64,000 bases of DNA from Patescibacteria group bacterium (lineage in GTDB: Bacteria > Patescibacteriota > Minisyncoccia > Phycocordibacterales > EsbW-18): the NCBI GenBank assembly GCA_038064475.1, contig JBBTTA010000002.1:19195-83194 (forward strand), in the 5' to 3' direction. The position numbers and the translations under genes are program-made. Position 1 is the stretch's first letter, and each line of letters begins with the position of its first letter. The notes under the pieces are model-generated. The model was given only the letters and a program-made list of their open reading frames with translations, did no database searches and was not told the DNA's origin. Below, piece by piece: positions 5,134 through 63,561 of this stretch.

Positions 5134-5790
5134 TTACTCTGTCACCTCTTCATCAACAAGAGCGGCATACACAACCAAGACGCGGTCGTATTCTTGTGAT
5201 GTGTGATCAAACGTTCCTGAGCATGTTATGAGGCGGAGTCCTGCGTGATCAATATCACCGTACACTTTTTCTGTTGGAAATTCGCTGCGATTGTAGCGTT
5301 CAAGTGCTGTCACGCGAAATGTCGCTGTCGAACCATCTTCGCGATCGACATAAATGTAGTCACCTTGTGTGAGTTGTCCCAAAAAGAGAAACACCGCCGG
5401 TCCCATGTACGAATCCACATGCCCGAGGACGATTGCAGGACCTATTTCCCCCGGTGTTGGACCATGTATATACCAACCAACTTCTTCAAATCCCTTTGGC
5501 GTCTCTACCTCGCCGTTCGCATCGAGACCAAGTTCGACAAAATGTGTATCGATATAAATGTCAGGAATGCGCAATCGAATGGGGGCAGATGCTTCAAGTG
5601 GTGTGCCGAATTCAAATGTAGGCGCAAACAATTCAAAAAAACCTTTGGTGCCGTCTGAAGCAACATACGACACCACGGTTCCTCGCGAAGCAAGAAACAT
5701 GCTTATGCCAATCGCAAAGAGGATAACGCCGATTGCAGAAAGGTTTTTGTGGAGAAAGTCGGTGACTTTTTTAAAGTCAGGGATTTGCAT
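5134..5790 (-). CDS. Sortase family transpeptidase
   Basis: N-terminal TM. IVLGHVDSYMGPAVF matches the His motif. LRLITCSGTFD matches the TLxTC catalytic Cys motif. Confidence 0.8.
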   Translation of the reverse strand: MQIPDFKKVTDFLHKNLSAIGVILFAIGISMFLASRGTVVSYVASDGTKGFFELFAPTFEFGTPLEASAPIRLRIPDIYIDTHFVELGLDANGEVETPKGFEEVGWYIHGPTPGEIGPAIVLGHVDSYMGPAVFLFLGQLTQGDYIYVDREDGSTATFRVTALERYNRSEFPTEKVYGDIDHAGLRLITCSGTFDHTSQEYDRVLVVYAALVDEEVTE

Positions 5791-5887: not shown

Positions 5888-7609
5888 TTACTTTCGACGA
5901 CCTGCTGTGAGAGCAAAGCCACCAAGAAGCGTGAAGAGTGAGCCAAGTGTGCTTACAGATCCTGCCATTCCTCCCATACCTGTCGCTGGTGCGCCAGCTG
6001 GAACGAGGGCAATCTGTTCACCCAAGACTTCTCCGCCATCATTTGAACCTCCTCCGCCTCCACGTCGGCTTGAGTCGCCACCTCCACCGTTATCATCGTC
6101 GCCATCTGTTTCGCGGTTGGTGTATGTACATACGACGTCCTCTCCTTCGCTAAGGCTGATTTCAATATCAGTTTCACCTGCGTCGTGTGAGAATTCGTCG
6201 TTACATTCAATCGTTGGAGCCTCCCAGCCCTCTGGAAGAACTTCGTTGATTGTGTATGAACCAGCCTCAAGATCACTGAAGACCTTTTCACCATCGTCGC
6301 CAAGTGTGAACAATCCAAGACTACCATTGAAATCAAAGAGGTTACCGTTTGCACTTGCAATCTGCTTGATGATTGTGATGCTTGCATCACCTGGGTCTTC
6401 TACGAGTCTGTTCGTAAACGTACAAGTAATATCGTCACCTTCTGCGAGAGTAATACCAATTGCGCCCTCGCCTTCAAAGTCTGCCACTACCTCGACTTGA
6501 GATTCGTCAAGACAGGTAATGTCTACAAGACTCCAGTCTGGAAGACCAACTTCAGTAACCGTGTGTGGACCAGCAGATACATCAAGTGCTCCTGACGTTT
6601 CTCCACCTGCCAAAACTGCTGTAGGTGTTACTGCGTCGTCCAAGTAAAAGTCAAAAGTTTGCTCGCTTTCAACACCCGTTACCTTGTTGATAGTAATAGT
6701 TGTGTCATCAACTTCATCCATTGTGTTTGTGAACACACAGGTGATGTTATCGCCGTCTGCAATGGTTACCCAGACACTGGTGTCTTCTTCTACGATGTAG
6801 GCATCCCAACCTTCAACGTCAGCGTTTGTACATACTACTGAACCAAAGCTCCAGTCTGCCTTATCAAGTTCTGCGACTGTGTGAACATCCTCCAAAAGAT
6901 CAGGGAATGTTTCGTAGTCTCCGTTGTTACCAAGAAGGTAGCTATCGAAGATCGTATTATCGATGTCCTCAAAGCTCTGACCATCAAGTGTAAAACCGAA
7001 CTCAACCTGATTACCTGCTTCGTTGTCTGTATCCTTCATGATCGTCAAAGATCCTGTAGCTGGAGGCACTACAACAACCGTATTTGTAATCGTACATGTT
7101 GCACCGTCTGCGGTGAGGTCAATATCTTCACAACCTTCGTAGGTAGTGTCGAAACCTGCTGCTACTACCTCTGTAACTGTGAAAAGGCCGTCTGCGAGGT
7201 CAAGTTCAACATCGTTTGAACCATCTGCTTCAAATGCTGTTGAACTACCACCATTGATGATAAAGCTAAAATCATCTGCATTCGCATCTGTCTCACCAAC
7301 AATTACTTTCTCAACTGTGAGAGTGCCTGTTGTTGGTTCTGGTACATTTTCATTACACCACGCATTACTACCATTACCGTTCTCGTCCAATGGTCCTGCA
7401 TAATCAAAGTCCCCGTGCGCAATGTGACTGTCATAGGCAGACAAATCAGGAGTATCCAAATAATTCCATGTATCCCCTGTTTTGTGACAAACGTCGAACT
7501 TTGCAGGAGTCTGTGCAGAAGCAAAACTTGCAATTGCAAGACCAACGATAACTACTGTGCCGAGTACGAGATTTGCAATTCGTACAAAGCCCATTGATTT
7601 GCTATTCAT
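5888..7609 (-). CDS. Secreted cell-surface protein with repeated Ig-like (Cna-B/prealbumin-like) domains and a C-terminal sorting signal
   Basis: Signal peptide. At least four repeats each ending in C(T/V)(F/Y)TN(T/R). Gly-rich linker. C-terminus ...LVPAGAPATGMGG + hydrophobic stretch + RRK. It lies directly adjacent to the sortase gene. Confidence 0.7.
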   Translation of the reverse strand: MNSKSMGFVRIANLVLGTVVIVGLAIASFASAQTPAKFDVCHKTGDTWNYLDTPDLSAYDSHIAHGDFDYAGPLDENGNGSNAWCNENVPEPTTGTLTVEKVIVGETDANADDFSFIINGGSSTAFEADGSNDVELDLADGLFTVTEVVAAGFDTTYEGCEDIDLTADGATCTITNTVVVVPPATGSLTIMKDTDNEAGNQVEFGFTLDGQSFEDIDNTIFDSYLLGNNGDYETFPDLLEDVHTVAELDKADWSFGSVVCTNADVEGWDAYIVEEDTSVWVTIADGDNITCVFTNTMDEVDDTTITINKVTGVESEQTFDFYLDDAVTPTAVLAGGETSGALDVSAGPHTVTEVGLPDWSLVDITCLDESQVEVVADFEGEGAIGITLAEGDDITCTFTNRLVEDPGDASITIIKQIASANGNLFDFNGSLGLFTLGDDGEKVFSDLEAGSYTINEVLPEGWEAPTIECNDEFSHDAGETDIEISLSEGEDVVCTYTNRETDGDDDNGGGGDSSRRGGGGGSNDGGEVLGEQIALVPAGAPATGMGGMAGSVSTLGSLFTLLGGFALTAGRRK

Positions 7610-17710: not shown

Positions 17711-17802
17711 ACCGTGATGTCTTCTATTGTAGCAAAAAACACAAAACTCCGCGGTAGCGGAGTTTCATGATAGGTCTTGTATCGATAAGCCGAATTCTGT
17801 AT

Positions 17803-17835
17803 CCAGCTCCAGTTTTTTCAAACTGGGGCTGGACG
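17803..17835. repeat. Hairpin module CCAGCTCCAGTTT-tttca-AAACTGGGGCTGG, copy 1 (P18 position of rnpB)
   Basis: 13-bp stem with one G-U on the plus strand (C-A on the minus-strand RNA). Four copies in the window. Confidence 0.6.
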
Positions 17836-18066
17836 ACAGGCATCTATCTGGGATGAAAATTACTTTTCACCTCAAGCGGCACTTCTAACGTAAATCAAAG
17901 ACTAACGTTAGACTCGGCCTTGCACGTAGATAAGGATTTTGCCGTTTCACCTCTCATGTCACCATGGGAGTTCACCTCACCGAAGCGAGGGCCAAACTTC
18001 TTTCGTTGTTTGGCGTCACTGTTCGCACCTCTATGCTTGCGCACGACGGGTGTTACCCGCTACCGT

Positions 18067-18102
18067 CCTCCAGCTCCAGTTTTTTCAAACTGGGGCTGGA
18101 CG
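18067..18102. repeat. Hairpin module copy 2 (between P4 and P7 of rnpB)
   Basis: Stem identical to copy 1 and extended by GTC/GAC. Confidence 0.6.
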
Positions 18103-18119
18103 TGTTCGGACTTTCCTCA

Positions 18120-18148
18120 CCCAGCTCCAGTTAAAAACTGGGGCTGGG
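18120..18148. repeat. Hairpin module copy 3 (P3 position of rnpB)
   Basis: CCCAGCTCCAGTT-aaaa-AACTGGGGCTGGG. Confidence 0.6.
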
Positions 18149-18195
18149 CGCGCCTGTCTAATACAAGGTGAATATACTATACCCTATTTTTCGAC

Positions 18196-30636: not shown

Positions 30637-32377
30637 TGAGCCGCTCGGGATTGGAGAGACACGGGTAAGTGATACTCGCCAGTTAGATGGCTCGCATGAG
30701 TTTCAAGAAAGCGAAATCAGAAGATTTGCCGCCAATCTTAAAATTGAAATAGCGGCAGATGGCTTTTGGAGCAATACAGTTAAAGGAGACAGCGACGAGC
30801 GGATGACAATGGCTACTGCGCTTGCGTATATTGATGAAAGAATAAAAAACAACAAGCGTCGTGTGACGGATTATTTTTGTTATAACATTGAGCGCTTCAC
30901 TCGTGGTGGACATGCTATGTATGACTTTATGAAAGGCGAGTTGAAGAAACGGGGAGTAAGGATGAGAGATGTAGCAGGAATCATCCAGCCGGATAAAAAT
31001 ACGATGGAAAACTTGGGTATGGATTACAAATGGAGTAACTATTCACCCAGTGGCACTCAAGAGTTGCTTGAAGCAGATAGGGCCAAAGACAACAGACGGG
31101 ACATGCTTACTCGCATGATTGGACAGGAGGTCATTAACGCTCGTCAGGGTTATGCGGTGCACCCTGCACCTGATGGAATGATAAACAAGCGTGACCGCTA
31201 TCACTCTGAGGGTAAACGTAAGCGCCGGTCAACCCGTTATCGAGATCCTGAACGTGCTCCTTTCTACGAAAAAATGTTCAAGCTACGAGCGGAAGGGCAA
31301 ATGTCCGACGAAAAGATAGTGGAAGAAATAAATAAGGATGGCTATCTCTCCAAAGTCCGAACACGCTGGAGTAAAGACAGCAAGACGGAGATCGGATACA
31401 CCGGCGGTATTCCACTTACGGTAAAACAATTACAAGCAATTATTCAACGACCCATATATGCTGGGGTCAATTACGAGGTATTTACGCTCTGGAAACCAGT
31501 AAGGGCTGTTTACGCTGGCTTGGTGGAGATTGATAGATGGAATAAAGCAAATCGTGGCAGATGGTTTATTGAGGAGTTGCCCGACGGGCTATTGCAGATG
31601 CACCAGAACTATAATCCGGAGATACGGACACGAGATAACGAGCAGTACCCCTTCAAAGACGTAATCCTCTGCACTTTTTGCAAGGAATTAGAGGGAAAAG
31701 AGCGGCCATTTCGAGGCAGTGCTTCTCGAAGCAAGAATGGTAATCATTATCCCGCCTATCATGCTGACCATAAAATAAACGGAGTCAGACACAAACGAAT
31801 CGGGGTTAATAAACATGTCTTCGAGAAGCAGGTTGAGGAATTCGTAACCGATCTACAGTTTCAGCCAGAACTGTTGAAGAGCTTTCAATTGGTGCTCATG
31901 GATACATTCAACCAGAAGCAGGCAGGCACTATTGAGGCGGCCACCGGTGCAGAAAAGAGGGTTATCGATCTACAGGAACAGAAGCAGGCGGCTACCAAGG
32001 CCTATATTGCTGCCAATGCTGTTGGTGACGAAGACCTGATGAGCGACATCAAGGCAGAGCGAACTCGATTGGACCAGTTACTAAAGGTCGCCCAGGGTCA
32101 CAGAGATGAACTCGAGGTGGATGAGAGGGATTTGGACGAATTCGTGTGGCGAGTGAACTGGGTGATGGAACACCCCCATGAATTCCTATTGCGTGCAGGT
32201 AGCAAACAACAAAGACGAGCTTACTTCTCGCTCATGTTTGATGAGTTACCAACCTACCAAGACGTATTAGATGGAACACCAAAATTGTCTTGGATTTTCA
32301 GGCTGGATTCGGAAAAACTCCCTGAAAAAGGGTCTGAAAAAAGTTTGGTGCGCCGGGGAGGATTCGAACCTCCGTAG
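30608..32377 (+). CDS. Large serine recombinase (integrase)
   Basis: Resolvase catalytic region GETRVSDTRQ (Ser nucleophile). ERFTRG matches the DRLGR-type motif. KKRGV. Long C-terminal recombinase/zinc-ribbon region with Cys/His cluster CTFCKE...HYPAYHADH. Its stop overlaps tRNA-Tyr by ~30 nt. Confidence 0.75.
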   Translation: MNKDTPTKTDEPLGIGETRVSDTRQLDGSHEFQESEIRRFAANLKIEIAADGFWSNTVKGDSDERMTMATALAYIDERIKNNKRRVTDYFCYNIERFTRGGHAMYDFMKGELKKRGVRMRDVAGIIQPDKNTMENLGMDYKWSNYSPSGTQELLEADRAKDNRRDMLTRMIGQEVINARQGYAVHPAPDGMINKRDRYHSEGKRKRRSTRYRDPERAPFYEKMFKLRAEGQMSDEKIVEEINKDGYLSKVRTRWSKDSKTEIGYTGGIPLTVKQLQAIIQRPIYAGVNYEVFTLWKPVRAVYAGLVEIDRWNKANRGRWFIEELPDGLLQMHQNYNPEIRTRDNEQYPFKDVILCTFCKELEGKERPFRGSASRSKNGNHYPAYHADHKINGVRHKRIGVNKHVFEKQVEEFVTDLQFQPELLKSFQLVLMDTFNQKQAGTIEAATGAEKRVIDLQEQKQAATKAYIAANAVGDEDLMSDIKAERTRLDQLLKVAQGHRDELEVDERDLDEFVWRVNWVMEHPHEFLLRAGSKQQRRAYFSLMFDELPTYQDVLDGTPKLSWIFRLDSEKLPEKGSEKSLVRRGGFEPP

Positions 32378-32432
32378 CCACAAGGGCGCTTGATTTACAG
32401 TCAAGTACGTTTGACCGCTCCGTCACCGACGC
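32346..32432 (-). tRNA. tRNA-Tyr (GTA), type II with long variable arm, CCA encoded
   Basis: Reverse complement: GCGTCGG-TG-ACG-GAGCGGTCAAA-CGT-A-CTTGA-CTGTAAA-TCAAG-CGCCCTTGTGGCTAC-GGAGG-TTCGAAT-CCTCC-CCGGCGC-A-CCA. Confidence 0.85.
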
Positions 32433-33414: not shown

Positions 33415-33933
33415 TTAGTTATTCCCTGTTAATGCGTTTTGTATTTTTGTTCTTACACTTTCCAAATCTTGTAGTTCAGGTGTTTTTATATGAAGAATAG
33501 GGATTTCTGCACCATTGAGAATGTGGTTTACCACTACGTCTCGTTCTTGTCGGTCAGGTCGCTCATGGGACTTGTCATCAAGCTCGATGGCTAGTTGAGG
33601 TAGAAAGCTAATCTTGTCACACAAGACGAAATCAACAGATTTTTCATCAATGTGCCTGAAAGCACCAAACCAATTTTGTCCGAGTACTTTATGGTCGAGA
33701 ATTGTTGCGAGGTGGATTTGAGGAAAAACGTCGTACCGAGCACCAACCAAAGCAAGAAGTATCTTAAAACACTCTTGTTCCGAGGCAGTCATAATTATCT
33801 TTTTTTTGTACTGATATTCTCTGCGTTTTGGAAATTTCCAATCAACCAACACACCAAGAATCGCGAAAAGAACAATTATAAATATTCCCCAAAAAAGAAA
33901 TGGCTTTATGAACTCAAAAAGGTCTATACTCAT
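33415..33933 (-). CDS. DUF2726-family (NERD/PD-(D/E)xK-fold) protein with N-terminal TM
   Basis: Pattern ECFKILLALVGARYDVFPQIHL...VDFVLCDK...LAIELDDKSHERPDRQERDVVVNHIL matches DUF2726. Confidence 0.5.
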   Translation of the reverse strand: MSIDLFEFIKPFLFWGIFIIVLFAILGVLVDWKFPKRREYQYKKKIIMTASEQECFKILLALVGARYDVFPQIHLATILDHKVLGQNWFGAFRHIDEKSVDFVLCDKISFLPQLAIELDDKSHERPDRQERDVVVNHILNGAEIPILHIKTPELQDLESVRTKIQNALTGNN

Positions 33934-34366
33934 ACCCCCATTCTACCACCCACCCCCCACGCCTGTTTTTGAATCTGGTATGAAAAAGGCGTGCACACCG
34001 AAGTGTGCACGCCTGAGGTTTTGCCCGTTAGGGCTTGGGGTCCCACGGCATCTTGATGTCGAACCCGCCCGGGATTCGAACGGTCGTGTGGCCGCCCTTG
34101 AGCGTGCCGTCGGGGTTCACCCCGAAGGTGTCGTGGAGGTCGCCTGTGCCGGTCGGAGAAGGTCCGATCGGTTGGATCCCGAAGTCGCTGGGCTTGGTGG
34201 GATTCCCGAGAGGGATGAACGGCTTGAATTCGTCGCTCATACTACTTTCCTTTCTGGAGCAATGCTCCGAAGTGCTTCTGTCTATATAATAACAGACATT
34301 TTAAACATTGACAATAGTCTGAAAAACAGTACTTTATAGGAAGAAGTAAAACGACAAGGGGGTTAT

Positions 34367-34663
34367 ATGAGCGACAACTTTCTGAGCAGGGATGAATGCG
34401 TTTGTGGCGCAAGTACATCAGTGTGTGGGGGGCGAATTGTCTTTGACCACGCAACTCACCGAGGGAGGATTTATCACGAGAGGTCAAAAGACCACGTCTT
34501 GAGATCAGAAATGTCGGAAACGTGGGTATGCTCCCGCTGTGGTAGATACAGCGGGTCGTGCGAGCCGGACGAACCTCATCTGTGGTATTGCTCCACAGAT
34601 TTGTGCAATCGTTGCAAAAGACCGAGCTACAATTGCGGGTGCCATGTTGGCGAGCCATACTAA
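34367..34663 (+). CDS. Cys-rich putative zinc-binding small protein (98 aa)
   Basis: Multiple CxxC pairs (CVCG...CGG, CSRCG, CNRCK...CGC). Confidence 0.4.
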   Translation: MSDNFLSRDECVCGASTSVCGGRIVFDHATHRGRIYHERSKDHVLRSEMSETWVCSRCGRYSGSCEPDEPHLWYCSTDLCNRCKRPSYNCGCHVGEPY

Positions 34664-34721
34664 TCTCAACGCGTTATCGCTTCCAATTTTGGAGGCGATT
34701 TTTTTAATCAAACAAAAAACC

Positions 34722-34747
34722 GCCCGCCTTGGCATGCCAAGGCGGGC
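34722..34747 (-). terminator. Hairpin GCCCGCCTTGGCA-TGCCAAGGCGGGC, U-tract on minus strand
   Basis: Perfect 13-bp palindrome. The plus strand has the A-run before it. Confidence 0.45.
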
Positions 34748-34808
34748 CCCTGCGTCAGTTTCGTCTCTGCCGGAGGCTTTTCATTTATATAAAATCCAGA
34801 TAAGAGAC

Positions 34809-34905
34809 CCTTTGACAGCTACATCGGATAGAATATACTTATACTAAGATCACGAATGGAAAAGATCACCCTACAAGGTTTCGTCCTTGTGGGGCCTTTT
34901 CTTTT
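34809..34905 (+). ncRNA. Promoter-sRNA-terminator module 2
   Basis: TTGACA-N16-TATACT, transcript AAGAUCACGAAUGGAAAAGAUCACCCUACAAGG-uuucgu-CCUUGUGGGGCC + UUUUCUUUU. Confidence 0.35.
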
Positions 34906-34924
34906 AAAGTTTAGATAAAATAAT

Positions 34925-35015
34925 CCTTGACAGGAAAAAAGTAGGTAGTACCATAGGCCTATCACGAACAGAAAGAGTGCCCCGATGAGGTTTTGTCCTC
35001 ATCGGGGTCTTTCTT
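34925..35015 (+). ncRNA. Promoter-sRNA-terminator module 3
   Basis: TTGACA-N16-TACCAT, transcript CCUAUCACGAACAGAAAGAGUGCCCCGAUGAGG-uuuugu-CCUCAUCGGGGUC + UUUCUUUUUU. Confidence 0.35.
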
Positions 35016-35544
35016 TTTTCTCAACCTTATTTCTGCTATCACCAACAAATCTGGTGTATGACAAAAAATCCGTGCGCTTTAAAAGTCCGGAATATTTTTT
35101 CCTATTTGGAACCATTAGTGCAAGGAGCTTCTTTTGGCTAAGCAGATAATCAACAAGACAATAAAAATCGCCATCCCCACTAACGATAAGGATTTTTTCA
35201 CAGTCATTGATGTGAATCATCGTATGCAACACCAGTTCTGCATCCACGTTTCCCTTTATCTCTCCATCTGGTATTTCAAATGTTGGCTTAAAAATACAAA
35301 TATAGCCGTTTTTCTGAAGATATTTATATAACCCTTCATTGCCTTTTACATATCCAATACAAAGAAAAGCTTTTTCAATTGAATATTTATCTTTGAGGTA
35401 GACACGGAACCGCGCAAAATCTAGTTTCCAACCTTGTTTTTGAACTCCAAGATTTAGATTCTGACTATCAATAAAAGCAAAGTTGTTCGCTCGCATCCAA
35501 CAATCGTACTCTGCGGAGCTAAAGAAAATATAAAGATTTCTCAA
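34999..35544 (-). CDS. NYN/LabA-like (PIN-fold) ribonuclease domain protein
   Basis: AFIDSQNL, GNVDAELV and the hallmark LIVSGDGDF. TTG start at 35544, or internal ATG. Confidence 0.65.
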   Translation of the reverse strand: MRNLYIFFSSAEYDCWMRANNFAFIDSQNLNLGVQKQGWKLDFARFRVYLKDKYSIEKAFLCIGYVKGNEGLYKYLQKNGYICIFKPTFEIPDGEIKGNVDAELVLHTMIHINDCEKILIVSGDGDFYCLVDYLLSQKKLLALMVPNRKKYSGLLKRTDFLSYTRFVGDSRNKVEKKERPR

Positions 35545-35550
35545 AACAGC

Positions 35551-35583
35551 AAAAAGAAAAGGCCTCGCGTGAGCGAAGCCTCT
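35551..35583 (-). terminator. Intrinsic terminator GGCUUCGC-UCAC-GCGAGGCC + UUUUCUUUUU (minus strand)
   Basis: Read directly. It ends the upstream ORF-free region just before the NYN gene. Confidence 0.5.
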
Positions 35584-36252
35584 TCAGTATTGCGCCGCCG
35601 AAGCGGGTGATACTGGAAAAAGAACTGGTGAGTCTATGACTGACCTCGTGAGCGTACTCTCGAGGATAGACTGAAGCGTTGGGAACGTTGAGCGGGGCCT
35701 ATCGCTCTAAGATGATTTTTTCGCATCGCGACCGAAGTCGTGAGCGTCGTCCTGGGTTGGACCTCATCTGTTCCCTACGAGTCTCGCTGGAGGGCGAGAC
35801 CATTACCGAAGATTTCATTGAACCGAAGTTCGCTGAAGTTCTTCGTTTGCCTGTAAGACGATGGCCGTTCCCGAAGGATTGGTATCGCTGTGTGATGTGT
35901 AGAGGATTTTGAGTTCTCATAACACCACACAAGAAAGTTTTCGATTTCACCGCCGAAGCGACGAAGTGCTAGGTCCGAAATCTCTCCCCGGTGCATTGGA
36001 ACTGAGTTTCCCGTTTTACCGAGTTACTCTCCCATGTTCCCTTGGCTTTTACACGTTCGCTTCGTACAACCTCCGTTGTCGATTGAGGTAAGCGATCCCG
36101 CGGAGGGTTCGCACACATCTCGTCGATTTTCGGAAGCTTCCGTTGCGGCTTTGGGGACGACATGCACTGCCGTATCCCCTATCCGTGTGGTCGTCGCACG
36201 TCAGGCGATCAAATTTCCCTCGCGGGAGTCCGATTGCCAGTGCGCTCTAACC
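35584..36252 (-). ncRNA. Candidate large structured non-coding RNA (~0.7 kb; up to ~1 kb if it extends to 36580)
   Basis: No ORF of >=100 aa on either strand over ~1 kb. The minus strand has six C(UUCG)G tetraloop motifs at plus-strand CCGAAG positions 35586-35950. Candidate promoter TTGACA-N16-TATACT on the minus strand at 36260-36287. Terminator at 35551-35583. No family assigned. Confidence 0.3.
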
Positions 36253-36587
36253 TACCGAGGAGTATACGCGAAATGTATCCATTGTCAATTGGTTGGATAA
36301 TTTCTAAATAAAAATAACATCACGTCAAATCACCACTCCCTTCTTCTTTTGAAAAACACAGAACCTATCAGCTGATAGGTTCTTCCGTACAGCGCCGTCG
36401 CGCTTCCCGGGGTTTTTCAAAAAAGAAGAAGCTCGTTTCCACGTTATACATATAAAATCGAGATAAAAAGATGTTTGACAATAAACCAGAGAAGACTAGA
36501 CTATACTTACAAACCAAACGGCTTCGGCCTTCCCCACAAGGGATACAATGGGGTTCATAAGAACTCTCCCCGTAAGGGGTTACAAAG

Positions 36588-36619
36588 AAAAACTCATGCA
36601 AACAAATGCATGAGTTTTT
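36588..36619. terminator. Perfect palindromic terminator AAAAACTCATGCA-aacaa-TGCATGAGTTTTT overlapping the last codons of the MazF-like gene
   Basis: Read directly. T-tracts on both strands. Confidence 0.55.
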
Positions 36620-37004
36620 CTTTTATATTTTCAAAATCCTCTTGCGAAATATTTCCAATTTTATACTTAAAGCGCCTTACATCTATAAGTCGGATTTGCG
36701 AAAGAATTGCGTTATTTAAAACACCATTTAGAAATAAAGAAAAATAGAAAGGGCCTTTCTTGATTTGTTTTGTTACTGGTACACAAACACATACATTACG
36801 ACCGAATTTTTTAATCACAATGATTGGGCGTAAAAACTGCTCTCCTTTTCCATCTTGTTCATGACCAACATTCACACCAAGTGCACACCACCAAACCTCA
36901 CGTTCATGAAAGAACCGAGTGTTCTCCTGAAAATGAATATCTTTTTTCACTAGGTTCCATCCATCAAAATTCTTAAATATCATTCCTATATGGTATGACA
37001 TCAC
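36594..37004 (-). CDS. MazF/PemK/Kid-family endoribonuclease toxin-like protein
   Basis: EREVWWCALGVNVGHEQDGKGEQFLRPIIVIKKFGRNVCVCVPVTKQIKKGPFYFSL...AILSQIRLIDVRRF..KIGNISQEDFENI follows the PemK pattern (RGdiw.vdl...G.E..k.RP.lVis...vPlTs....p..v.l...g....S.vl.dqirtidk.Rl). No antitoxin ORF is evident upstream. Confidence 0.6.
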   Translation of the reverse strand: MMSYHIGMIFKNFDGWNLVKKDIHFQENTRFFHEREVWWCALGVNVGHEQDGKGEQFLRPIIVIKKFGRNVCVCVPVTKQIKKGPFYFSLFLNGVLNNAILSQIRLIDVRRFKYKIGNISQEDFENIKEKLMHLFA

Positions 37005-37043
37005 CCATAAAGTTTATCTCAAATAAAAGGCTATACTATCTGC

Positions 37044-37664
37044 ATGCAAACATTCCCATTCAAGAAACACAAAGAGTTTACTGTGTTCAAAAAACTCAAC
37101 ACACCAGCGAAGGTGCAGGATTTTGTGAATACGTTGTCCGTGAATTTTGAAAAGGATGGGGAAACGTGCAACTCCCCTCTCTATGTTTTGAAAAATAAAA
37201 GCGCGCACTGCTTTGAGGGCGCGCTTGTGGCGGCGGCCACACTGTGGTATCACGGGCGGCCGCCACTTCTTCTTGATCTTGAAACAGGATTAAACGATGA
37301 ATCACATGTCATCGCACCTTTTAAAGAAAACGGATTGTGGGGAGCGATAAGTACAACAAATCATGCTGTGTTGCGTTATCGCGAGCCAATACACAAAACA
37401 ATCCGCGAACTTGTGCTCTCTTACTTCCATGAATACTTTCTCGATACAGGAATAAAAACACTCAAATCATTTTCAACAAAGCCACTCGACCTTACTCTTT
37501 TTGATGACGAGTGGCCCATCGCTGAATATCCTGTCTGGGGCATTCACGATACTCTCGTTGACGCGCCCCACAGCCCTATCGCGCCAGAAAAAGCGCTCAA
37601 AAACCTCCGTCGCGCAGACCTAATAGAAATACAGGCTGGAAAACTGACAGTGGAGAAGAAATAG
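37044..37664 (+). CDS. Transglutaminase-like/papain-fold putative cysteine peptidase (206 aa)
   Basis: Candidate Cys-His-Asp arrangement (NKSAHCFEGALVAAATLWYHG ... HVIAPF ... D). Tentative. Confidence 0.35.
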   Translation: MQTFPFKKHKEFTVFKKLNTPAKVQDFVNTLSVNFEKDGETCNSPLYVLKNKSAHCFEGALVAAATLWYHGRPPLLLDLETGLNDESHVIAPFKENGLWGAISTTNHAVLRYREPIHKTIRELVLSYFHEYFLDTGIKTLKSFSTKPLDLTLFDDEWPIAEYPVWGIHDTLVDAPHSPIAPEKALKNLRRADLIEIQAGKLTVEKK

Positions 37665-62877: not shown

Positions 62878-62946
62878 GTAGCCCCCTGTACAAAGAACGC
62901 CTGATTGATTCAGGAATCGTCTGGGTAGGATTATAGCATTTTAAAC

Positions 62947-63561
62947 CTATTTGTCAATTCTTTTGTTTTTGTTTGGTTTGCAGAACGTTTTTCGATGAAG
63001 TTTTGAAAGACCATATTTTTTGATTGCGGTTATGTGCAACGCTGTTCCATAGCCCTTATGCACTTCAAACCCATACTTTGGATAGAGTTTTGCATATGTA
63101 CACATTCTCCTGTCGCGAAGCACTTTTGCACATACCGATGCGAGAGCAATTTCAAGATATGTCGCATCCCCTTTTGTGTATGCCTTCTGGTTTTTGAACA
63201 CCTCAGGCGCGCGCAACCCACCGTCGAGTTTCACTGCGTCAGTTGAGCGCGCGCTAGCCATCAAGAGTGCTTTTTTCATTCCCTTCCGAATAGCGTCAAC
63301 AATCCCTCTCGTATCGATATGCGAGGCAGAAACGAGAGCAACCCCATATGTGAGGTGCCCTTCTTTTTTGAGTTTCTGAATCTTTTTAAACCACTCCTCT
63401 CGACGCTTCTCGGGAAGCTGTTTTGAGTCCTTCACTTGGGGAAAGAGTCTTTTAACTGGCGATATATGCGAGATCCGTACAACCCCCACAGCAACAGGCC
63501 CAGCCAATGGCCCTCGACCTGCTTCATCCACCCCAACAATTCCTCTCCTTAAAGCTCCCAT
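62947..63561 (-). CDS. rnhB: Ribonuclease HII
   Basis: GVDEAGRGPLAGPV active-site motif. The ORF-track start at 63579 is probably extended. Confidence 0.85.
   Translation of the reverse strand: MGALRRGIVGVDEAGRGPLAGPVAVGVVRISHISPVKRLFPQVKDSKQLPEKRREEWFKKIQKLKKEGHLTYGVALVSASHIDTRGIVDAIRKGMKKALLMASARSTDAVKLDGGLRAPEVFKNQKAYTKGDATYLEIALASVCAKVLRDRRMCTYAKLYPKYGFEVHKGYGTALHITAIKKYGLSKLHRKTFCKPNKNKRIDK

Follow-up and report, generated by a model that had tools for sequence, protein, structure and literature searches.

A candidate large structured RNA gene and small RNAs convergent with mazF and NYN genes in a kilobase of groundwater Patescibacteria DNA without open reading frames

The 64,000-nt stretch of DNA analysed here (the window) belongs to contig JBBTTA010000002.1 of the Patescibacteria group assembly GCA_038064475.1. 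This 158-kb contig derives from a Hainich groundwater metagenome (well H41, 0.1 µm fraction), and the neighbouring genes lead to a placement in Paceibacteria/Parcubacteria. Our subject is a kilobase between a gene for a NYN-domain protein and a gene of the PemK/MazF family (mazF), which an earlier interpretation of the letters alone, the sequence-only reading, had described as about 1 kb without a plausible open reading frame (ORF) and as one candidate large structured RNA. Positions 35545-36593 (1049 nt) indeed form the longest run in the window in which no ORF reaches 100 amino acids (aa), and both flanking products are of RNase type and encoded on the same strand, as had been proposed (Table 1). 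A large structured RNA is present as well, but the kilobase is a composite and not a single unit: it holds a minus-strand RNA of ~705 nt (the large RNA), a spacer of ~190 nt with inverted repeats and a plus-strand RNA of ~120 nt (the small RNA sRNA-M). From left to right, the order is the NYN gene and the large RNA (both leftward), the spacer, sRNA-M (rightward), mazF (leftward) and then a divergent 206-aa gene of housekeeping type that begins 40 nt upstream of mazF. The GC fraction is 0.50-0.55 within the large-RNA unit, compared with 0.33-0.38 in both flanking genes and 0.46 in the whole window. Near-consensus sigma-70 promoters (at most one mismatch to TTGACA-N16-TATACT) number six in the 64 kb, against 0.10 expected, and three of the six fall in this patch; the remaining three lie at 1960-1987, 2630-2657 and 62930-62957, all on the minus strand. 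The tRNA-Tyr gene that had been placed beside the region exists (32346-32432), but at a distance of 3.2 kb. PADLOC assigned no defence system to the proteins neighbouring the region. Taking the large-RNA part and the small-RNA part jointly, we consider it likely that the kilobase contains two independent, divergently transcribed RNA genes with a hairpin-rich spacer between them.

The large RNA would be driven by a sigma-70 promoter and would end at an intrinsic terminator ~705 nt further on; both elements had been named in the sequence-only reading, and both were found (Table 1). Compared with shuffled sequences, the minimum free energy of the ~706-nt unit has z-scores of -5.6 (minus strand) and -3.6 (plus strand). 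In 150-nt windows the folding excess is concentrated at 35500-35950, with the coding flanks scoring about 0. The six C(UUCG)G motifs reported earlier for the minus strand within 35586-35950 are all there, although the last one reaches just beyond that interval: CTTCGG starts at 35598, 35732, 35806, 35823, 35871 and 35953, and does not occur on the opposite strand. In dinucleotide shuffles of the ~707-nt unit, the motif was seen 0.41 times on average and four times at most, and none of 5000 shuffles reached six. At least two further stem pairs flank five of the six motifs.

A homolog was reached through the 206-aa neighbour gene, whose 78%-identical relative P0126 sits on contig L187. L187 and L190 are our labels for two related Paceibacteria contigs; L188 and L189 are identical to L187. 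Using nhmmer, window positions 35533-36330 matched L187 5635-6490 (E = 2e-70), and L190, the locus of a 77%-identical homolog of the 206-aa gene, holds the first 122 nt of the large RNA at its contig end (E = 5.7e-25). The large RNAs of the window and L187 are 68% identical over aligned columns with 78 gap columns, and near-invariant blocks are interspersed with variable helices, one of which carries an additional inserted UUCG-capped stem in L187. Nucleotide identity of the neighbours between the same two contigs is 73% for the 206-aa gene, in which about half of the third codon positions differ, and 54-56% for mazF and NYN. The mismatches in the large RNA are spread over the three positions modulo 3 as 73/82/69, compared with 36/25/101 in the coding neighbours, and its indels measure 1, 2, 5, 9, 11 or 12 nt, compared with 3 nt only in the coding neighbours. 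The RNAalifold consensus has 164 pairs, of which 24 changed on both sides, 17 on one side and two are broken. Column shuffles gave 14.5 compensatory pairs on average and 22 at most, the energy of the real consensus has a z-score of -4.4, and sliding the 3' partners left only 0-7 compensatory pairs as opposed to 24. Comparative covariation, which had been suggested as a check, thus turned out in favour of the structure, and it supports a conserved fold of the large RNA, resting on two sequences. This fold would consist of a conserved multi-branch 3' core and variable peripheral helices with UUCG tetraloop caps.

Further copies were sought in several collections. Other relatives of the 206-aa gene (66-75% identical; P0127, P0131 and P0133) and the closest NYN homolog, P0002, have no copy of the large RNA within their contigs. 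A covariance model of the core (R1), run over ~1.03 Mb of loci, matched only its own seeds in the window and L187. Twenty metagenome contigs with the flanking proteins are 100% identical save for a single-nucleotide polymorphism and offer no variation, and blastn of the large RNA against phage and plasmid collections found none. The large RNA is so far from a few groundwater Paceibacteria only.

The large RNA matches no known family. Rfam 15 cmscan of the whole window gave no large-RNA match at the gathering threshold, and at E ≤ 10 it returned only terminator-like noise on 33500-37200, on 35540-36300 and on the L187 homolog; as a positive control, the scan detected a group I intron and a transfer-messenger RNA (tmRNA) in other loci. 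The suggestion of an OLE-, GOLLD- or ROOL-like RNA therefore did not hold as family membership, and the proposed Rfam check (GOLLD, ROOL, OLE, HEARO, introns and tmRNA) came back without a match; nor were the HEARO and raiA covariance models matched at E ≤ 10. ARAGORN found no tmRNA in the window, and Rfam found neither tmRNA nor intron in the large-RNA region, with RNase P located elsewhere (17772-18167). Proteins were equally missing: ten stop-free translations of the region, together with the ORFs in it, had no Pfam match (best E 0.29), and a full HMMER search of a central 82-codon translation in one frame against 1.84 billion representative proteins returned only its own 73-aa ORF, so the frameshifted pseudogene that had been considered was not recovered by either search. 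Public gene calls inside the large RNA (73 aa at window 35775-35996 and 76 aa at L187 5574-5804, both on the minus strand) are spurious. Paralogy between the GC-rich patches 33930-34750 and 35550-36300 was considered and rejected: they share no similarity, and the first consists of two small protein genes bearing Shine-Dalgarno sites. With the promoter and terminator kept, a homolog rich in compensatory changes, a non-coding pattern of substitutions and indels, and no protein or Rfam match, the large structured RNA proposed earlier is borne out, and we conclude with high confidence that it is a genuine conserved structured non-coding RNA gene. It would represent an undescribed family of a known kind, resembling OLE, ROOL and GOLLD while failing their models, and would act in trans as a stable folded RNA.

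We compared the genomic context of the large RNA in the three genomes. In L187 it runs from 6417 to 5655, with a peptidase S51 gene on one side and, on the other, an unrelated plus-strand gene that has its own promoter and terminator; mazF lies ~1.1 kb from it and NYN ~4.6 kb, beyond a tRNA synthetase gene and two radical-SAM genes. In L190 it comes after purA. Because the neighbours differ between the three genomes, the large RNA appears to be a stand-alone chromosomal gene. It is absent from 86 NYN loci (76 on genome contigs plus 10 close homologs) and from 80 metagenome MazF loci, 166 in all. More than 1 kb of ORF-free DNA follows the toxin gene in only one of 62 MazF loci, and the gap upstream of NYN has a median of ~90 nt; the few long gaps at MazF and NYN loci contain a group I intron, a tmRNA or nothing known. 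The intron (L088 962-1290) lies just upstream of a NYN homolog in a Parcubacteria metagenome-assembled genome (MAG), and the tmRNA gene (L181 972-1365) just downstream of a MazF homolog. As to the unrelated plus-strand gene of L187, the 253-aa call at 6586-7347 (minus strand) is probably wrong, and a plus-strand 261-aa ORF at 6547-7332, with a promoter at 6517-6544 and a terminator at 7351-7380, fits better.

The mazF product also matches the NCBIfam MazF model (6.2e-8), below the equivalog cut-off. Upstream of mazF, 77 loci either lack an ORF or have ORFs that are divergent or unrelated from one locus to the next, which indicates that these loci have no conserved protein antitoxin. On the other side of the gene, a promoter at 36475-36502 would drive the ~120-nt sRNA-M on the plus strand into a bidirectional terminator that also ends mazF, and the two transcripts are complementary over ~37 nt, with comparable geometry at other loci. 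The GGCTTCGGCC noted earlier on the plus strand near 36522 is found at 36520-36529. The 5' hairpin of sRNA-M, AAACGGCUUCGGCC, occupies the same convergent position in 77 of 82 MazF loci; the motif A-N-GGCUUCGGCC, with small variants allowed, lies convergent and within 260 nt of the mazF stop in the same proportion, the median distance past the stop being 47 nt. A 6-11-bp hairpin always follows the motif, its sequence varying by locus, and a compensated hairpin GCC-UUCG-GGC appears in some loci. A promoter of the form TTGAC[AT]-N17-TAnnnT precedes the motif in most of the MazF loci listed. In L187, sRNA-M (7447-7580) stands beside its mazF, and 9 of 20 pairs are compensatory.

A covariance model built on 14 sequences (R3) matched the convergent site in most of 65 MazF loci at E < 0.01; 622 kb of control loci gave no match below that value. 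In the alignment of 71 matches, 94% of cells are paired, compared with 70% in shuffles and 41-52% with slid partners; double changes occur at 26 of 27 pairs, with strong covariation in hairpin 2. Some MazF loci show a second R3 match a few hundred bases away (L128 2489-2575, L110 4010-4100 and L114 1913-1999), and these may be second modules or orphan copies. A 21-aa ORF within sRNA-M (ATG at 36549) was rejected, as it is not conserved in L187. Rfam holds no family for sRNA-M, and we found no description in the literature searched of a MazF or PemK with an RNA or convergent antisense partner. The earlier idea of an RNA paired with an RNase gene that lacks a protein antitoxin thus applies to sRNA-M and not to the large RNA. 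From its conservation and position, we are inclined to read sRNA-M as an antitoxin RNA or as a negative regulator of MazF. Two modes of action are conceivable, alone or together: binding of the MazF protein via the invariant 5' AAACGGCUUCGGCC, as in type III systems, and antisense pairing via the 3' end, as in type I systems. Recognition by the protein is favoured and 3'-end pairing comes second, since the most conserved element of sRNA-M lies outside the antisense overlap.

The NYN gene has a comparable arrangement. Of the two tandem sRNA-N units (Table 1), one copy is conserved in L187 (492-612), and the sRNA-N profile finds a match at the convergent site of 37 NYN loci from several phyla, of which 30 are distinct (e.g. 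L097 5485-5555 and L024 4468-4575). The matches have in common (G)AAUCACGA...GAAA at the 5' end and, at the apex of the terminator hairpin, AAGGUUYYGUCCUU; Rfam holds no family for sRNA-N. NYN and sRNA-N are a second module of an RNase and a convergent small RNA, and the NYN gene, judged by its contexts, is a neighbour of the large RNA and not its partner. A start of the NYN gene at TTG 35544 was excluded by alignment to homologs. Homologs with 75-82% identity to the NYN protein occur in several Parcubacteria classes, where their contexts are unrelated, and identity is still 55-62% in MAGs of Syntrophorhabdus, Nitrospirae, Dehalococcoidia, Gammaproteobacteria and Saccharibacteria; this distribution suggests a horizontally mobile module. 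In some relatives, very large genes (1170-1767 aa) come after NYN.

Table 1. Features of the ORF-free kilobase and its flanks (window coordinates)
Feature	Position	Strand	Details
Large structured RNA gene, ~705 nt	35550..36256	-	5' end predicted from promoter; 3' end is the terminator U-tract
Large-RNA promoter, TTGACA-N16-TATACT	36261..36288	-	Hexamers and 16-nt spacing kept in L187 (6448..6421) and L190; spacer letters differ
Large-RNA intrinsic terminator, 13-bp stem and U-tract	35546..35585 (hairpin 35585..35556)	-	Kept in L187 at 5691..5660
Large-RNA 3' core domain, multi-branch fold, 46 pairs	35632..35783	-	153 nt, 92% mean column identity to L187
Cluster of six C(UUCG)G-capped hairpins	35598..35958	-	Three at homologous L187 positions
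Spacer: long inverted repeat 36340-36359 / 36412-36431 around palindrome 36361-36382	36340..36431	.	150-nt window z = -6.2 / -4.7
sRNA-M promoter: UP-like ATATAAAATCGAGATAA, -35 TTGACA at 36475, -10 TAGACT ending at 36502	36450..36502	+	Conserved in L187
sRNA-M, ~120 nt: 5' single strand, hairpin 1 (GGC-UUCG-GCC), hairpins 2 and 3, terminator	36509..36630	+	Candidate RNA antitoxin
sRNA-M near-invariant 5' motif AAACGGCUUCGGCCU	36516..36530	+	77/82 mazF loci
Bidirectional terminator hairpin common to sRNA-M and mazF	36584..36623	.	Spans mazF stop codon 36594-36596
PemK/MazF-family gene, 129 aa as called (ORF start could be 37004)	36594..36983	-	PF02452, 48.7 bits vs cut-off 23.1, E 9.5e-13
NYN-domain gene, 165 aa, downstream of large RNA	34999..35496	-	Pfam PF01936, 7.3e-11
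sRNA-N, two tandem promoter-to-terminator units, ~34846-34905 and 34961-35017	34787-35017	+	Second converges on NYN 3' end

The sequence-only reading had tied the large RNA functionally to the two RNases beside it, in the style of type III systems, be it as antitoxin, as decoy substrate or as scaffold, and in the window it does lie directly between mazF and NYN on the same strand, next to a mazF without a protein antitoxin. The adjacency is, however, lost in L187 and L190, the 166 NYN and MazF loci contain no large RNA and rarely have long ORF-free flanks, tandem repeats are missing, and each RNase has its own conserved convergent small RNA. We regard such a tie as very unlikely. Still less probable is a cis-acting 5' leader or attenuator of NYN, an idea that draws on the lack of a predicted separate NYN promoter in the 60-nt gap between the terminator and the NYN start: a strong 13-bp terminator closes the large-RNA unit, downstream of it lies NYN in the window but a peptidase S51 gene in L187, and close NYN homologs have short gaps without the large RNA. 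This comparison of loci speaks against the large RNA serving the RNase genes on either side as antitoxin, substrate or leader, and its adjacency to them in the window is incidental. An equally improbable explanation is that the region is a decayed protein gene or a foreign DNA fragment with incidental hairpins. A stop-free stretch of 125 codons on the plus strand (35923-36297), the GC content above that of the flanks and the 73-aa ORF of the gene callers would fit it, yet the translations have no Pfam match, the central frame matches nothing besides the spurious ORF, codon periodicity is missing, the indels are not multiples of three, promoter and terminator are kept, and the 153-nt block is 92% identical while the neighbour gene differs at about half of its third positions. 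That the GC-rich hairpin block works as DNA, such as an origin of replication or transfer or a site of recombination, would suit the many inverted repeats and the patch of small accessory-looking genes, but the UUCG loops are on one strand only, a conserved promoter and terminator frame the block exactly, and no recombinase or relaxase gene is adjacent; we give this hardly any credence. A stand-alone large RNA gene is the explanation that we retain.

The most serious competitor to an antitoxin role of sRNA-M is that it amounts to no more than a bidirectional terminator shared with mazF, or to an element that regulates this gene from its 3' side. The mazF terminator does form the 3' portion of sRNA-M, and such a structure could be shared by any convergent gene pair. 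Yet sRNA-M has its own conserved promoter, a near-invariant 5' hairpin that lies outside the overlap and bears C(UUCG)G only on the strand opposite mazF, and a covarying second hairpin, none of which a terminator needs, and there is no other antitoxin candidate at the locus. We therefore consider the terminator-only explanation unlikely and continue to lean towards an antitoxin or negative regulator. Several further points weigh against our interpretation. The effect of sRNA-M on MazF is inferred, and we presume this MazF subfamily to be toxic because of the family it belongs to. For the large RNA, the structural evidence comes from two divergent sequences and a 122-nt fragment nearly identical to one of them; the consensus structure was scored on the very alignment that produced it, with no proper covariation statistic; and the 5' half (35950-36250) shows no local folding excess. 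The alignment fold scores the plus strand equally well, and we call the minus strand because of the promoter, the terminator and the one-sided UUCG loops. Scans of the JGI metagenome and IMG/VR collections with six back-translated seeds and two conserved 22-23-mers found no homolog; the large-RNA family may be very narrow, or these exact-pattern scans may be insensitive. Finally, a scaffold role for the large RNA is proposed by analogy.

The spacer between the two RNA genes is not conserved in L187, where the plus-strand gene and its terminator take its place; it probably insulates the large-RNA promoter from mazF or supplies terminators between the two. Its palindrome GAACCTATCAGCTGATAGGTTC exists as described earlier, 10 nt to the left of the place given for it. 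Beyond the NYN gene, a divergent pair of small genes (34028-34240 on the minus strand and 34367-34663 on the plus strand) has good Shine-Dalgarno sites and lies in a patch of up to 65% GC. One product is a Pro/Gly-rich protein of 70 aa and the other a Cys-rich protein of 98 aa, neither with a Pfam match; both start MSD(E/N)F, encoded by inverted copies of one 15-nt sequence. Metagenome gene callers placed overlapping ORFs of 138 and 119 aa over this pair. The RNase P RNA, on the minus strand, scores 102.3 against an Rfam threshold of 100 and contains a 30-nt hairpin insertion, CCAGCCCCAGUUUGAAAAAACUGGAGCUGG, twice in identical form (17803-17832 and 18070-18099), with a third related hairpin near its 5' end.

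Our tentative overall proposal is that the patch contains three undescribed RNA families, namely a lineage-specific large ornate RNA of 700-760 nt and two kinds of small RNA with promoters of their own, which converge on the MazF and NYN genes, two unrelated RNase genes, and overlap their 3' ends. To our knowledge, few structured RNAs of bacteria exceed about 500 nt, namely ribosomal RNA, RNase P, tmRNA, OLE, GOLLD, ROOL and HEARO, each of which is unusual in structure or mechanism. Genomes in the candidate phyla radiation are small and under pressure to shed unneeded DNA; that such a genome keeps a 700-nt RNA with consensus promoter, terminator and a core conserved at 92% makes an important role likely. 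In the literature on large RNAs in the candidate phyla radiation or Patescibacteria we found no described example; if our proposal is true, this would be the first large ornate RNA from that radiation, and it is small enough for cryo-electron microscopy. For the small RNAs, sRNA-M offers a testable answer to how 'solitary' MazF/PemK genes are controlled, and the NYN arrangement runs parallel to it. If sRNA-M and sRNA-N are antitoxins, they would define a widespread two-gene module of an RNase and a convergent small RNA that is neither type I, type II nor type III and that could account for many 'orphan' MazF and NYN genes. The combination of AAACGGCUUCGGCC and a hairpin provides a sequence signature for annotating such modules.

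Among known large RNAs, OLE is the ornate large extremophilic RNA and is thought to be a ribonucleoprotein scaffold. Like OLE (RF01071), the large RNA is a stand-alone chromosomal RNA of ~600-700 nt with many hairpins and no coding capacity; unlike OLE, it is not matched by that family's covariance model at E ≤ 10, occurs in Patescibacteria and not Bacillota, and has no adjoining oapA-like gene. By this likeness the large RNA may be a ribonucleoprotein scaffold as well, the role that we favour with limited confidence; the alternative is some other self-contained structural or catalytic RNA. Homo-oligomers are known for OLE, ROOL and GOLLD. Structures of these three RNAs have been described (PMC12286853). 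ROOL (RF03087) and GOLLD (RF01998) are large ornate RNAs of unknown function that often lie near tRNA genes (PMC5737381, PMC12286853). They share with our large RNA that it is a large ornate RNA recognised by size and conservation, but their models do not match it, it was not found in phage or viral collections, and in the related contigs its context consists of chromosomal housekeeping genes (purA, a peptidase and a tRNA synthetase).

The mazF locus can be set beside three classes of toxin-antitoxin systems. With the type II systems MazEF and PemIK it shares a PemK/MazF-family toxin, but no adjacent MazE/PemI-type gene occurs in the window and no protein antitoxin is co-transcribed. The type III toxin ToxN has a MazF/Kid-like fold. 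Type III systems (ToxIN, CptIN and TenpIN; PMC3401426) combine an endoribonuclease toxin with a structured RNA, and so does the mazF/sRNA-M pair, in which the neutralising role would be the corresponding one. The sequence-only reading had likened the locus to this type, which departs from it in having a tandem repeat array, an RNA upstream on the same strand with a terminator in between, and a ToxN/AbiQ toxin, whereas here the toxin is of the PemK/MazF family, sRNA-M is convergent rather than upstream, and a search with TRF and for repeats over 34700-37100 found no tandem repeat array. The large RNA does not follow the type III arrangement either, being downstream of mazF with its own promoter. 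Convergent antisense RNAs that overlap the toxin gene at the 3' end are known from type I systems, such as txpA/RatA and bsrG/SR4 of B. subtilis. As in these, sRNA-M is a cis-encoded antisense RNA that overlaps the end of the mazF mRNA: it is convergent with the toxin gene, the 3' ends are complementary and there is no protein antitoxin. The usual type I toxin is a small hydrophobic (membrane) peptide, however, compared with a 129-aa MazF-fold RNase here, and the sRNA-M overlap covers only ~30-50 nt, with the most conserved part, the 5' hairpin, outside it. The MazF-sRNA pair, in which features that define types I, II and III are missing, would be a new variant if the antitoxin role holds.

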